From Patescibacteria group bacterium (GTDB lineage Bacteria; Patescibacteriota; Patescibacteriia; Patescibacteriales; UBA12465), in NCBI GenBank assembly GCA_050949525.1, contig JBMNFW010000001.1, positions 143,890 through 207,889 of the forward strand: a DNA stretch of 64,000 nucleotides, read 5' to 3'. The notes beneath the pieces are model-generated. The model searched no databases, was not told where the DNA came from, and saw only the letters and a list, made by a program, of their open reading frames with translations. The position numbers were made by a program, and so were the translations under genes. Of this stretch, positions 26,845 to 32,222 are shown one piece after another; within the stretch, counting starts at the first letter, position 1; each line of letters starts with the position of its first letter.

Positions 26845-26873
26845 TTGACATAAGTTAAAAAATAATGTATAAT
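26845..26873 (+). promoter_or_regulatory. consensus sigma70 promoter upstream of the rRNA operon (TTGACA, 17 nt spacer, TATAAT)
   Basis: TTGACA at 26845-26850, exactly 17-nt spacer, TATAAT at 26868-26873. This is the only strong promoter I found between comEC-like and 23S. Confidence 0.7.
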
Positions 26874-26955
26874 GACTCCAGTTTATAAAAATTGATCTGT
26901 TTGAAAAATAAATAATAAATTATGTTTATTAAATTTTTATTGTTAAATAAAAATT

Positions 26956-27009
26956 AGCGGCTTCAAGCTTTATAAGCTTTTTTTCGGGGCCGCTTTTCAG
27001 CGGTTTTTT
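26956..27009 (+). promoter_or_regulatory. terminator/antiterminator-like element in the rRNA leader
   Basis: AGCGGC (26956-26961) can pair with GCCGCT (26989-26994). GCCGCT can alternatively pair with AGCGGT (26999-27004), which is followed by T6. The first pairing encloses the hairpin AAGCTT-TAT-AAGCTT (26965-26979), itself followed by T7. Confidence 0.4.
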
Positions 27010-27167
27010 CTTTTTAAAATTTAAATATTAAAAATTCAGTCATCATTGAGGTGGTGCCTGAAAATTGATATTTAAATCAAGGGAACTTTAAAAATTAAAA
27101 AATACTTTATTGTTAGTTTAGCAATTTCAACAATGAAGTATAGAACCAAAAATTTTTGAATTTATTT

Positions 27168-27190
27168 AAAATCAAAAATGTGAGAAAATC
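27168..27190 (+). other. 5' arm of the 23S processing stem
   Basis: AAAATCAAAAATGTGAGAAAATC is complementary to 30188-30210 (22 Watson-Crick pairs plus one G.U). Confidence 0.8.
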
Positions 27191-30100
27191 TCGTTAAGAG
27201 TATATGGCGGATGCCTTGACATAAAAAGACGATGAAGGACGTAGCAGCCTGCGATAAGCTTCGGGGAGGTGGCAAGCAACCTTTGATCCGTAGATTTCCG
27301 AATGGGGAAACCTATCCTGTTGGAGACAGGATGCCCTAGCATTGGTTAGGGGGAGGACCCGGTGAATTGAAACATCTTAGTAGCCGGAGGAAAAGAGAAT
27401 AATAATTATTCCCTTAGTAGTGGCGAGCGAAAAGGGAGGAGCCTAAACTTTGTAAACTGAGCAATAATTAATTTTACTTATGTGAAAGAGATGTTGCGGA
27501 AGGAGCCAAGTCCACATGTTTACAGGGGGTTGTAAGACTACCATCATTTATTTCTTGGATGGAATAAAATAAAGTCATAAATAATATTTTTAACTGAATG
27601 AACTGGAAAGTTCAGCTATAAAAGGTGATAGCCCTGTAAGTGAAAAAAATATTACTTTATCCTTGGTAGTTCTTAAGTAGTGCGGGACTCGTGAAATCCC
27701 GTATGAATCTGGGTCGACTATGATCCAAGGCTAAATACTTTTTATGATCGATAGTGAACAAGTACCGTGAGGGAAAGGTGAAAAGCATCCCGATGAGGGA
27801 GGTGAAATAGTACCTGAAACCATATACTTACAAAGAGTCGGAGCCTGAGTTTACTCGGGTGACGGCGTGCCTATTGAAGAATGAGCCAACGAGTTTGTTC
27901 TATGTGGCTTGCATAAGCTCCTTTGGAGAATATGCCCAGTGAAAGCGAGGGTTAATAGCCCGTTTCAGTTATCTTATTGGGATAAGATGCTTCTTATTTC
28001 AATAAGATAATTGATCTGTCGCATGGACAAGACCCGAAGCCGGGTGATCTAACCATGGCCAGGTTGAAGTGTGAAGAAATTCACATGGAGGACCGAACCC
28101 ACTAGTCGTGCAACACTAGGGGATGAGCTGTGGTTAGCGGTGAAATTCCAATCGAACTCGGCGATAGCTGGTTCTCCGCGAAATAGTTTTAGGACTAGCC
28201 TTGAGTGTTTATTATTGGGGGTAGAGCACTGAATGAGGGTGGGCCGCAAGGTACCATCTTTAATCAAACTCCGAATACCAATAAATATAGCTCAGGAGTC
28301 AGACTATGGGCGCTAAGGTCCATCAGTCGAAAGGGAAACAGCCCAGATCGCAATCTAAGGTCCCTAAATATATGCTAAGTGTGAAAGGTGGTGTCGTGAC
28401 TACGACAATTAGGAGGTTGGCTTAGAAGCAGCCATCCTTTAAAGAAAGCGTAATAGCTCACTAATCCAGTTGTTTCGCGCCGAAAATTTATCGGGGCTAA
28501 GCATATTACCGAAGATGCGAGTATCATTGTTTACAATGATGCGGTAGCGGAGCGTTCTATTAGCACTGAAGTCAGATCGTGAGGTCTGGTGGAGTTAATG
28601 GAAGTGAGAATGTTGGCATGAGTAGCAAAAAGGCAGGTGAAAACCCTGCCCACCGAAAATCTAAGGTTTCCTGGGCAACGTAAATCGACCCAGGGTTAGT
28701 CGGTCCTAAGGCGTATCTTGTGTAGTGCAAGAGAAGTCGATGGCTGAGCTGGTTAATATTCCAGCACTACTATAATCTCTGATGGAGGGACGTAATTCCT
28801 AGGTTTAGGCGCTCTGATGGATATGAGCGTTGATGGCTTCAAGAAATGATCCAGGCAAATCCGGATCAATAATTTCAAGAAGTTGTCTGAAGGTGAAGTT
28901 TCGATGGATCCAACCTAGATAAGGGAATTACCAAGAAAAGCTTCTAAGACTAAGGATTATAGTATCCGTACTAAAACCAACACAGGTAGATGAGGCGAGA
29001 AGCCTAAGGTGTACGAGAGAATCTTCGTTAAGGAACTCGGCAAAATAGCGACCGTAATTTCGAGAGAAGGTCTGCCCTAGCAATAGGGCCGCAGCTAAAG
29101 AGCTCAAGGGACTGTTTACCAAAAACACAGCTCTCTGCTAAATCGAAAGATGATGTATAGAGGGTGAAGCCTGGCCAGTGTCCGAACGTTAAGAGGAGGG
29201 GTCATCCTAGTTTACTAGGGGAAGCTCTGAATTGAAGCGCGGATGAACGCCGGCGATAACTATAATCGTCCTAAGGTAGCGAAACTCCTTGTCGTGTAAG
29301 TTACGACCTGCATGAATGGCTTAACCACTTGAGCACTGTCTCAACGAAGAACTCGGCGAAATTGCATTTCGAGTAAAGATGCTCGATAACCATAGTAGGA
29401 CGAGAAGACCCCGTGAAGCTTTACTACAGCTTGATATTGAATTAGGGGTATGCATGTTCAGTATAGGTGGGAGCCTTCGGGCGCCAGTGAGATACCACCC
29501 TTGTATGCTTTTAATTCTAACCACATAGTATGTGGGACAGTGTCTGGTGGGTAGTTTGTCTGGGGCGGATGCCTCCCAAAAGGTAACGGAGGCGTTTACA
29601 AAGGTTGGTTATCTCGGAATGGAAACCCGAGAGATAGTGTAAAGGCATAAACCAGCTTTACTGCAAGACCTACTAGTCAAGCAGTCGCGAAAGCGGAACT
29701 TAGTGATCCGACCATTCAATATAGGATGGTGGAAGCTCATCGGATAAAAGCTACTCCGGGGATAACAGGCTAGTCACGCCCAAGCGTCCACAGCGACGGC
29801 GTGGTTCGGCACCTCGATGTCGGCTCGTCGCATCCTGGGGGTGGAGAAGCTCCCAAGGGTTGGGCTGTTCGCCCATTAAAGCGGCACGCGAGCTGGGTTC
29901 AGACCGTCGTAAGACAGGTCGGTCTCCTATCCACTATGGTCGTGGAAACTTGAAGAGGCCCTTCCTTAGTACGAGAGGACCAGGAAGGACGAAGCTCTAG
30001 TGTACCAGCTGTTCTGCCAAGGGCATTGCTGGGTAGCTACCTTCGGTATAGATAAGCGCTGAAAGCATATAAGCGCGAAGCTATCTCTAAGATTAGGTTT

Positions 30101-30192
30101 CATAGATTCCTTATAGACTATGAGGTTGATAGGCTCTAAGTGTAAGTCCAGTAATGGATTGAGCTGAGGAGTACTAATAAATCATTTGATTT
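27190..30192 (+). rRNA. rrl: 23S ribosomal RNA (ends approximate, within about 10 nt)
   Basis: 5' ...GTTAAGAGTATATGGCGGATGCCTTGAC...GATGAAGGACGT. Internal landmarks: GGATAACAGGC, the sarcin-ricin loop AGTACGAGAGGACC, and the peptidyl-transferase region GGCACCTCGATGTCGGCTC. About 3.0 kb with no intron-sized insertion seen. Confidence 0.95.
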
Positions 30193-30423: not shown

Positions 30424-30493
30424 GGACTTGTTTTTAAAACAAGTAAAAATAATGCAAAATTTTTATCTTGAGTAATCAAGATTCTCAATATTT

Positions 30494-32057
30494 TGTTTTG
30501 AGAGTTTGATCCTGGCTCAGGATGAATGCTGGCGGCGTGTCTAAGGCATGCAAGTCGAATGCTTCTTTACTTTTTACTGCGTAAGAGCTACACGGAGCAA
30601 TTATGATCTGAAAAAGTAATTATTCCTTGAAATTCATACGTGGTAATAAGTAAAGAGGCATGGCAAACGGGAGAGTAACACATTGATAACCTGCCCCGAA
30701 GACGAGAATAACCTTACGAAAGTGAGAATAATACTCGATGGTATTAAAAAACAAAAGTTTTTTAATTAAAGTTCCGGCGCTTCGGGAGGGGTCTATGGCC
30801 TATCAGTTTGTTGGTGGGGTAATGGCCTACCAAGACTATGACGGGTACCGGGTGCGAGAGCATGACCCGGCTCACTGGGACTGAGACACTGCCCAGACTC
30901 CTACGGGAGGCTGCAGTCAAGAATCTTCCTCAATGGGCGAAAGCCTGAAGGAGCGACGCCGCGTGTATGAAGAAGCCTTTCGGGGTGTAAAGTACTTTTA
31001 TTAGGGATGAATCAATGACAGTACCTAATGAATAAGGGGCTGCTAACCTCGTGCCAGCAGCAGCGGTAATACGAGGGCCCCAAGCATTATCCGGATTTAT
31101 TGGGCGTAAAGCGTCTGTAGACGGTTTGTCGCATCTCCTGTTAAATCCTCTGGCTCAACCAGGGGGCTGCGGGAGAGATGGGCAAACTAGAGACTGGAAG
31201 AGGCAATCGGAATTGCTGGTGTAGGGGTTAAATCCGTTAATATCAGCAGGAACACTCAATGCGAAAGCAAATTGCTGGGACAGTTCTGACGTTCAGAGAC
31301 GAAAGCGTGGGGAGCAAATGGGATTAGATACCCCAGTAGTCCACGCCGTAAACATTGGATGCTAAATATTGGAAGTATCGACCCTTTCAGTGTTGTTAAT
31401 TTAAGGTAACCCGTTAAGCATCCCGCCTGGGGAGTACGAGCGCAAGCTTAAAACTCAAAGGAATAGACGGGGACCCGCACAAGCGGTGGAGCATGTGGTT
31501 TAATTCGATGATAAGCGAAGAACCTCACCAAGGTTTGACATCTAGCTGCATGTCCTGGAAACAGGAAGGCCTTCGAGGGTGCTAGACAGATGCTGCATGG
31601 TTGCCGTCAGTTCGTGTCGTGAGATGTACCGTTAAGTCGGAAAACGAACGCAACCCTTATCTTATGTTTTATGTGTCATGAGAGACTGCCCGTTTTAAAT
31701 GGGAGGAAGGTGGGGACGACGTCAAATCAGCATGGTTCTTACACCTTGGGCTACACACGTGCTACAATGGTAAATACAAAGGGACGCCAAACCGCGAGGT
31801 GGAGCAAATCCCTAAAAATTTATCTCAGTTCGGATTGGAGTCTGCAACTGACTCCATGAAGTCGGAATCGCTAGTAATCGTAGGTCAGCTATACTACGGT
31901 GAATACGTTCTCGGGTCTTGTACTCACCGCCCGTCAAGTCAAGGGAGTTGGCAGTACCCGAAGTCTCCTTTTAGGGGCCGAAGGTAAGGCTGGCGACAGG
32001 GACTAAGTCGTAACAAGGTATCCGTAGCGGAAGCTGCGGATGGATCACCTCCTTTCT
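30494..32057 (+). rRNA. rrs: 16S ribosomal RNA (ends approximate)
   Basis: 5' GAGAGTTTGATCCTGGCTCAG. Internal landmarks GTGCCAGCAGCAGCGGTAATAC and GGATTAGATACCC. 3' GGATCACCTCCTTTCT. About 1.56 kb, including an expansion of about 60 nt in V1. Confidence 0.95.
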
Positions 32058-32150
32058 AGGGAGTTTAGGTTTTAGGTTATTAATTTAAAACCTAGGTCGA
32101 CTCTTTTACTTTGTAAAAGAGAGTCTATTAGAAATAATAGATAAAAAACA

Positions 32151-32177
32151 GAATTGATGCCTGTTAGCTTCAAAATC
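32151..32177 (+). other. 3' arm of the 16S processing stem
   Basis: GAATTGATGCCTGTTAGCTTCAAAATC pairs with 30397-30423. Confidence 0.8.
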
Positions 32178-32191
32178 ACAAAAAAACAAAA

Positions 32192-32222
32192 AAGAATACT
32201 TAATTTAGGTATTCTTTTTTGT
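32192..32222 (+). terminator. rho-independent terminator after 16S (end of the rRNA operon)
   Basis: AAGAATAC (32192-32199), 9-nt loop, GTATTCTT (32209-32216), then TTTTTTGTTTT. Confidence 0.7.

Follow-up and report, generated by a model that had tools for sequence, protein, structure and literature searches.

The ribosomal RNA (rRNA) genes in the 64,000-nucleotide (nt) stretch of Patescibacteria group DNA analysed here (contig JBMNFW010000001.1; hereafter the window, numbered from its first letter) form a circularly permuted locus, in which the 23S gene comes first, the 5S gene second and the 16S gene last. An earlier note, made from the DNA letters, had described these genes as lying in this order head-to-tail on the plus strand. 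We searched the window with Rfam covariance models, and the results bore out the order and placed the genes within a few bases of the earlier coordinates; all three matches were full length, none of the genes being truncated. The gaps measure 34 nt between 23S and 5S and 147 nt between 5S and 16S, with no gene in between, and the distance from the end of the 23S to the start of the 16S is 295 nt on the same strand. No further rRNA gene was found by these models in the whole window, in agreement with the statement that no 16S lies in the 27 kb upstream. Protein genes stand on both sides of the single 23S-5S-16S set, and no second 23S follows the 16S. No tRNA lies in or adjoining the operon, the only two tRNAs of the window being at 11.2-11.35 kb. 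We consider it probable, at roughly 70%, that the three genes are co-transcribed as a single unit. This reading, drawn from sequence features, is favoured because there is one conserved promoter, because there is no internal terminator, and because an internal promoter has been deleted naturally in two relatives, L011 and L016. Coordinates of all features are collected in Table 1.

The promoter scan gave only two sites matching the consensus at all 12 positions (12/12) in the whole 64 kb, and one of them stands about 310 nt upstream of the 23S gene. This is the site at 26845 that the earlier note had named as a consensus promoter. It proved to be real, since both hexamers and their spacing were invariant in 10/10 related leaders, with flanks that had diverged and carried indels. 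No other conserved promoter was found between this site and the 23S gene. In one subclade (L030, L032 and L042), an inserted three-gene cassette separates the MBL gene from the operon; the promoter has remained with the latter. The cassette consists of a reverse transcriptase (RVT_1, about 403 amino acids (aa)), a 566-568-aa protein without a Pfam match and a PLDc_2 protein of about 403 aa, and looks like a retroelement-based defence system. As a separate observation, the inverted repeat abutting the -35 hexamer, with the consensus CC(C)TTTATTTATAAGG(G), was kept in all aligned leaders (n = 7); it may serve as an operator or UP-like element, or insulate the promoter from transcription coming from upstream.

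At the other end of the locus, the terminator that had been placed after the 16S at 32192 was confirmed, the segment at about 32190-32222 folding at -20.1 kcal/mol. The automatic terminator scan misses it because its stem has fewer than three G-C pairs. Every genome checked had a terminator at the same post-16S position, and among them four different stems were seen; those outside the window include GCCG..GGCGG followed by T8 in L024 and L027 and AACCGG..CCGGTT in L042, and L030 also has one. A kept position with unrelated stem sequences is the pattern expected of conserved function.

The 23S and the 16S are each enclosed by a separate long inverted repeat, which we predict to be an RNase III processing stem. 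Both stems were found where the earlier note had put them, could be extended, and carried compensatory changes. The 23S duplex (27151-27190 with 30188-30226) has an energy of -34.3 kcal/mol and is paired in 99% of alignment cells, compared with 33-63% when the register is slid; L030 and L032 have A-U to G-C and C-G to U-A changes, and L011 has G-U intermediates. The 16S duplex (30386-30424 with 32150-32185) reaches -43.5 kcal/mol, and in L024 and L027 a C-G pair has changed to U-A in a compensatory manner and an A-U pair to G-U. The flanks of the 5S gene (30220-30232 and 30347-30359) extend its helix I to a duplex of -30.3 kcal/mol and were kept in 9/9 sequences.

Under the single-transcript reading, RNA polymerase would start near 26880 and pass a leader that contains a covarying hairpin and a boxA-like tract. 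It would then run through the 23S and 5S genes and the 147-nt spacer, with its weak hairpin, a second boxA-like GTTCTTT and a strand of the 16S stem, into the 16S, and would stop at about 32222. RNase III, whose gene lies just upstream, would cleave both the 23S and the 16S stem and free the precursors. On every transcript, 50S rRNA would precede 30S rRNA, and some further 16S transcription may come from the truncated internal promoter of the window.

The leader between the promoter and the 23S stem contains a putative open reading frame (ORF) of 11 codons and a GC-rich element with three strands, s1, s2 and s3. The s1:s2 and s2:s3 helices are mutually exclusive, and minimum-free-energy predictions were divided between the two folds. 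In the alignment, s1:s2 was paired in 88.9% of cells and had four pairs changed on both sides, with a covariation score reached by 0/500 shuffles. The s2:s3 helix was paired in 91.4% of cells and compatible with pairing in all sequences, and it showed no covariation. A T-rich boxA-like tract (27004-27019) follows s3, and the corresponding tract reads GGTTCTTTT in L024 and GGCTCTTTT in L027; a boxA-like motif, GTTCTTTTAT(A)TTTT, was also seen in the L024 and L033 leaders. Together with the T-run, s2:s3 has the shape of an intrinsic terminator, and the scan called a terminator-like site at 26986-27007 in the window and a corresponding hairpin in every genome, including L024, L027, L030 and L042. 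This hairpin may be a plain terminator, but its 5' strand also belongs to the covarying upstream helix. The sequence TGTTTGAAAAA at 26898 was rejected as a boxA, being poorly conserved in the leader alignment. No known RNA family was found in the leader (26760-27200), the best match of a permissive Rfam search being ncS025 with 23 bits against a gathering score of 46.

The leader may possibly act as a ribosome-sensing leader-peptide attenuator, so that most transcripts from the 26845 promoter would end at about 27010. We hold this to be doubtful; it would be compatible with a single 23S-5S-16S transcript and would add a control step to it. In one of its two branches, a ribosome on the 11-codon ORF would cover s1, the s2:s3 terminator would form, and transcription would abort near 27010. 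In the other, with ribosomes scarce or translation absent, s1:s2 would form as an antiterminator helix and polymerase would read through into 23S-5S-16S. The behaviour of the ORF across 10 genomes is consistent with this proposal, as its ATG is invariant, its length is a constant 11 codons in a gap-free block, and its stop codon overlaps s1, and the ORF was kept although its distance to the promoter ranges from 30 to 58 nt. The covariation of s1:s2 and the presence of s2:s3 with its T-run in all genomes, called terminator-like, point the same way. A Shine-Dalgarno-like 4-mer precedes only 3/48 long ORFs in the window, despite a 16S that ends in CCTCC, and the sequence upstream of the leader ATG resembles that of ordinary genes. 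Start codons in the window are preceded by A/T-rich sequence such as ...AATAATT-ATG (examples at 32256-32275 and 49158-49177).

Other results argue against an attenuator. The frame was open in 9/9 distinct sequences, which alone is weak evidence, composition by itself giving P = 0.26-0.49 for each, and no codon-position bias was found in the ORF. The terminator helix s2:s3 lacks covariation, and the same sequences may be read as an ordinary boxB-like hairpin plus boxA, that is, as a usual antitermination signal of an rRNA operon (rrn). In a literature search, no earlier case of an rrn operon controlled by a leader peptide was found. If true, the attenuator would place rRNA synthesis under direct ribosome feedback encoded in cis, a new mode of rRNA regulation.

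We then compared the 5S-16S spacers, using alignments of 9 and later 13 sequences. The results showed a conserved layout, with a mean column identity of 80%: the 5S is followed by a short AT hairpin, then by an invariant GTTCTTT, the 5' strand of the 16S stem, and two hairpins with variable tips. GTTCTTT stood at the boxA-like position in 13/13 spacers and is similar to the known rrn boxA core, G(C/T)TCTTT. No terminator-like site was found in the spacer of any genome. The post-5S hairpin was ruled out as a terminator, since it folds at only -5.1 kcal/mol and has no U-tract.

Several of our results weigh against a single transcript. An efficient terminator in the leader would end most transcripts ahead of the rRNA genes. 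The boxA assignment in the spacer was made by resemblance, and the 8-mer GTTCTTTW is not enriched in the window (12 found, 14.7 expected), for which reason we rejected it as a genome-wide signal. Two overlapping promoter-like sites in the spacer match the consensus at 10/12 positions, which exceeds chance: in dinucleotide shuffles of the 67-nt segment, one or more such sites arose in 2.3% and two or more in 0.1%. Many functional promoters come no closer to the consensus than 10/12, and the two sites, which are suitably placed upstream of the 16S stem, could form a weak internal 16S promoter. In addition, L030, L032 and L042 carry a perfect TTGACA-17-TATAAT at the homologous post-5S loop, and the ancestral state may have been two tandem transcription units. 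The earlier note had seen no convincing promoter in this spacer. That view holds only weakly for the window, given its two sites beyond chance and the perfect promoter in three close relatives.

These observations are the basis for an arrangement of two adjacent units, in which 23S-5S would be transcribed from 26845 and 16S mainly from a spacer promoter at 30338-30365 and/or 30356-30385, with read-through a minor or irrelevant contribution. The spacer is also laid out like an rrn leader, with a hairpin, a boxA-like element and a processing stem. We judge this arrangement unlikely for the window. In the post-5S loop of the window, TATAAT is kept at the homologous place and is apparently what is left of an internal 16S promoter; the corresponding -35 hexamer and spacer are missing, and the '-35' of the best match in the window falls inside the 5S gene. 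In nine relatives, no site of at least 9/12 was found upstream of the 16S stem, yet their 16S genes are intact. Read-through into the 16S is expected in any case, because no genome has a terminator between 5S and 16S.

The relatives L011 and L016 provide a natural deletion of the internal promoter. Both have the same flanks as the promoter-bearing genomes and lack exactly 24 nt, comprising the -35 hexamer and the spacer; the junction reads TTTA|TAAAAT in L011 and L016 and TTTA|TTTGACATTATTTTTGATAGTGTC|TATAAT in the undeleted form. In a neighbour-joining tree of 23S and 16S, L011 fell inside the promoter-bearing clade (bootstrap 100% for the clade and 72% for the nesting), and the deletion is therefore most simply a loss. 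The 16S of L016 is intact and full length despite the deletion, and the 16S genes of L011 and L016 have no promoter of their own that is recognisable in the sequence. For the family as a whole, the polarity of the internal promoter would have to be read against a sole and very distant outgroup (Jukes-Cantor (JC) distance 0.39), with basal nodes at 63-72% bootstrap. In our reading, the internal promoter would be an optional extra that was lost at least once in the family, probably separately in the lineage of the window, which would be in a reduced state with possibly some residual activity; read-through from the 23S promoter would be the constant source of 16S in the family. The spacer looks like a former 16S leader (promoter, hairpin, boxA, stem), and the clade appears to preserve traces of a fusion of two tandem units (23S-5S and promoter-16S) into a single permuted operon, brought about by loss of the internal promoter.

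Judged from its sequence, the organism is a bacterium of the Falkowbacteria type within the candidate phyla radiation (CPR, Patescibacteria), as the CPR assignment in the earlier note rightly had it. The MBL proteins of L030 and 'Candidatus Falkowbacteria bacterium HGW-Falkowbacteria-1' are identical, NCBI taxonomy placing the latter organism in the Parcubacteria group (Falkowiibacteriota), and the 16S of L030 is 95.2% identical to that of the window. The standard genetic code applies, with TGA used as a stop. Because of this, and because table-11 ORFs cover 80% of the window, it is not a code-25 SR1 or Gracilibacteria genome.

A survey of rRNA gene order in related CPR genomes, which the earlier note had suggested, found 23S-5S-16S in twelve relatives (L011, L014, L016, L018, L020, L022, L024, L025, L027, L030, L032 and L042). 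Their 16S genes were 93-96% identical to that of the window wherever at least about 1 kb of 16S was present (L018 and L020 contain only 71 and 393 nt). The permuted operon lies on a 901-kb contig in L027 and on a 568-kb contig in L030. Two Peribacteria contigs, L013 and L015, have the same order, with a 16S about 72% identical to that of the window by BLAST. The permuted order is thus inherited across a family-level clade and present in Peribacteria too. The Falkowbacteria-type clade that carries it is common in activated sludge and biogas reactors.

The loci were found by a pattern scan for a 5S motif followed by a 16S start. Its spacer length range was only 60 nt, so that its counts are not a census and operons with other spacer lengths, including the published SR1 operons, were not retrieved. 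The scan gave three CPR genomes plus one Bacillaceae tandem-operon match (L012) in the GTDB set, and twelve loci in metagenomes, including L026 (a Bacillaceae tandem) and L023 (on the same contig as L011). More permuted loci were added by synteny walks from the flanking genes; the walks reached no rRNA locus in L028/L029 (Falkowbacteria-labelled, UvrA 64%), L031 (RIFOXYB2_FULL_47_14) and L043. A further contig, L021, is from an unrelated bacterium (57% GC metagenome contig, 16S about 70% identical to all others here) and has 5S then 16S at 7130-8946 (minus strand) with no 23S within 7 kb downstream; it may represent another permuted or otherwise unusual rRNA layout.

The 23S gene of the window is free of the insertions found in some relatives, as are those of L030, L032 and L042. 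In other close relatives, the gene contains one to three insertions, each of 0.3-0.8 kb, located near window-23S positions 2082/2096, 2633 and 2726, and two insertions in L027 code for LAGLIDADG homing endonucleases (ORFs 4471-5070 and 5444-5887).

The window covers 64 kb of a genome of about 0.6-1 Mb, so a second rRNA locus could lie elsewhere, which counts against our reading. The permuted locus could then be a rearranged remnant, with the working rRNA coming from a canonical operon. We regard such a remnant as very improbable. Each of the three genes is complete and scores like a normal bacterial rRNA, and the promoter, stems and terminator are visibly constrained. The order was kept over 4-7% rRNA divergence within the clade and, in Peribacteria, over about 28% (16S BLAST; JC distance 0.39 on concatenated rRNA). 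CPR genomes usually have one rRNA copy, which also counts against a remnant.

We traced independent assemblies through proteins identical to those of both genes flanking the operon. L034 (NCBI GCA_046128275.1, a 91.7-kb contig) matched all 5521 nt of window positions 26755-32275 without gaps at 99.80% identity, and L035 (ENA ERZ27280805) matched the same 5521 nt without gaps at 99.89%. L036 covers 4754 nt of the region, from the MBL gene into the 16S, and L019 spans the 5S, the spacer and the 16S; ten further contigs start in the 3' end of the 16S and run on into the PLD gene. L034, L035, L036 and L019 are independent of the window assembly, as a few single-nucleotide polymorphisms (SNPs) set them apart. 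Although rRNA genes are classic sites of metagenome misassembly and many short-read contigs of the same species break within the 16S or 23S, the chance that the 5S-16S junction is an assembly artefact or chimeric join, a concern of the earlier note, is negligible, with two assemblies from different projects colinear and gapless over the whole operon (6-11 SNPs), two more spanning the junction, and the same junction in at least 12 related genomes with diverged yet alignable spacers.

Table 1. Features of the permuted rRNA locus and its surroundings. Positions are those of the window unless a contig is named.
Feature	Position	Strand	Details
nusB	24741-25214	+	Pfam
RNase III gene rnc	25147-25911	+	Pfam; homologues 230-231 aa, true start probably later
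MBL/ComEC-like gene	25888-26754	-	Pfam; divergent
Short conserved inverted repeat	26828-26843		CCTTTATTTATAG; directly 5' of -35 hexamer of rrn promoter
Main rrn promoter	26845-26873	+	TTGACA-17-TATAAT (12/12); promoter scan
Leader ORF (putative)	26922-26957	+	11 codons, MFIKFLLLNKN; ATG 26922, TAG 26955-26957
Leader GC element	26957-27019	+	s1 GCGGCTTCA 26957-26965; s2 CGGGGCCGC 26985-26993; s3 GCGG 27000-27003
23S stem, 5' strand	27168-27190	+	Inner 9 bp are 23S helix 1; extends outward to 27151
23S rRNA gene	27182-30198	+	Rfam covariance model, 2515 bits, model 1-2925, full length
23S stem, 3' strand	30188-30210	+	Extends to 30226
5S rRNA gene	30233-30346	+	Rfam covariance model, 92.5 bits
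Promoter-like site	30338-30365	+	TCGCCA-16-TATAAT (10/12); promoter scan
AT-rich post-5S hairpin	30350-30369	+	TGTAATT/AATTACA; loop TATAAT 30360-30365
Promoter-like site	30356-30385	+	TTAATA-18-TATAAT (10/12); promoter scan; overlaps 30338-30365 site
boxA-like element	30372-30384	+	GTTCTTTATATAA; just 5' of 16S stem; putative function, by resemblance
16S stem, 5' strand	30386-30424	+	Core 30397-30423; conserved in 13 spacers
16S rRNA gene	30494-32055	+	Rfam covariance model, 1422 bits, model 1-1533; anti-Shine-Dalgarno CCTCC at 3' end
16S stem, 3' strand	32150-32185	+	Core 32151-32177
Intrinsic terminator	32183-32226	+	A-tract, stem GAATAC/GTATTC, T-run
23S insertions in relatives	L027 3514-6023; L024 5687-6433; L011 1611-1938; L014 1246-4242
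Three-gene cassette	L030 5637-9712; L032 5435-9513; L042 5624-9699		Absent from window

The neighbourhood of the operon is conserved, the synteny S1-FtsH-L32-NusB-RNase III-(T2SSE)-MBL-rrn being kept in L030, L032, L033, L042, L044 and L046. Downstream, the PLD gene (ATG at 32276) begins 12 nt after a 10/12 promoter-like site with an extended -10 (32235-32263) and may be nearly leaderless. The UvrA gene (33312-35762, plus strand) encodes 816 aa, here and clade-wide, compared with about 940-990 aa in homologues farther away; annotation of the longer homologues includes the PF17760 domain, which is not reported for the 816-aa forms. A gene of the Translin family (PF01997), a mainly eukaryotic and archaeal family, lies at about 37856-38431 (minus strand), placed by offset from L001 6473-7048. 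It is part of a clade-conserved cluster of PLD/GatB, UvrA, patatin, inositol monophosphatase, metallophosphoesterase and translin, followed by a T2SSE-type ATPase of about 1000 aa. The other 12/12 TTGACA-17-TATAAT of the window, at 49029-49057, is followed by a near-canonical boxA, GTTCTTTAACAA, at 49073-49084 and by a 382-aa ORF (49178-50326, plus strand) with an N-terminal signal peptide; its product may be a secreted or surface protein made at very high levels under rrn-like antitermination. A transfer-messenger RNA (tmRNA) followed by tRNA-Leu(TAA) and tRNA-Gly(GCC) lies at 10784-11350 (plus strand) with gaps of 12 and 10 nt, and the three may form one small-RNA transcription unit.

The order 23S-5S-16S was reported for candidate division SR1 / Absconditabacteria by Camanocha and Dewhirst in 2014 (PMC4192840). 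The permuted order is thus known since that year, and the window is a well-documented new example rather than a new kind. The SR1 paper mentions stop-codon recoding and gives no promoter, spacer or processing analysis (PMC4192840). Apart from it, our literature search found no earlier report of this order, including for Falkowbacteria-type genomes and Peribacteria. The SR1 locus and the window share the identical one-strand gene order and a CPR-type uncultivated host, a comparison made at the level of gene order and lineage. They differ in lineage, Absconditibacteriota versus Falkowiibacteriota (Parcubacteria group) in NCBI taxonomy. The window falls outside SR1/Absconditabacteria by its Falkowbacteria-linked relative and its standard code, so that the arrangement is common to both and the lineage different. 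SR1 reads UGA as glycine, whereas TGA is a stop in the window.

Compared with a canonical operon of the E. coli rrnB type, the window likewise has a strong consensus promoter, a hairpin and a tract resembling boxA ahead of both large rRNAs, RNase III-type stems around 16S and 23S, a 5S after the 23S and an end terminator. Unlike the canonical operon, it has the 16S last, no spacer tRNA, a 5S-16S spacer in place of the 16S-23S spacer, and a leader with a short ORF and a terminator-shaped alternative fold. Like unlinked rRNA genes (Thermus, Rickettsiales, Helicobacter and many CPR bacteria), its 16S is not followed by a 23S; unlike them, its genes share one strand and are separated by 147 and 34 nt, in which there is neither a terminator nor another gene. 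A survey of unlinked rRNA genes makes no mention of the permuted order (Brewer et al., bioRxiv 10.1101/705046). Any survey that looks solely at how far the next 23S lies from the 3' end of the 16S would classify the window locus as 'unlinked'.

Tandem operons of Bacillaceae (L012, Priestia megaterium, and L026) resemble the window in having a 5S followed by a same-strand 16S within about 160-170 nt. In such tandems, the downstream 16S begins another complete 16S-23S-5S operon; L012 and L026 are too short to show the operon after the downstream 16S. Tandem canonical operons are a plausible evolutionary intermediate to the permuted order. By one route, a canonical operon would have been duplicated in tandem, after which the outer 16S and outer 23S-5S would have been lost; by another, a promoter-16S unit would have been transposed to a place behind the 5S. 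An engineered E. coli rrn with 23S before 16S in one transcript reportedly still gives functional ribosomes (Zaporojets, French and Squires, in 2003). That construct is artificial and sits in a host with seven normal operons, whereas the arrangement in the window is natural, conserved and the sole one.

Organisms with this arrangement are misclassified by primers running from 16S into 23S and by 'linked/unlinked' surveys, and an amplicon from a 23S forward to a 16S reverse primer would selectively capture them. The order 16S-23S-5S is among the most conserved bacterial gene orders and is often explained by co-transcriptional 5'-to-3' assembly and by equal amounts of the rRNAs. A natural lineage with linked genes that makes 23S first would mean that a 16S-first order is not required. 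As the permuted order occurs in SR1, in the Falkowbacteria-type clade and in Peribacteria, it is either old within the CPR or has arisen more than once. Within the family, close relatives with and without the perfect internal 16S promoter form a natural comparative experiment on the stoichiometry of the subunit rRNAs.

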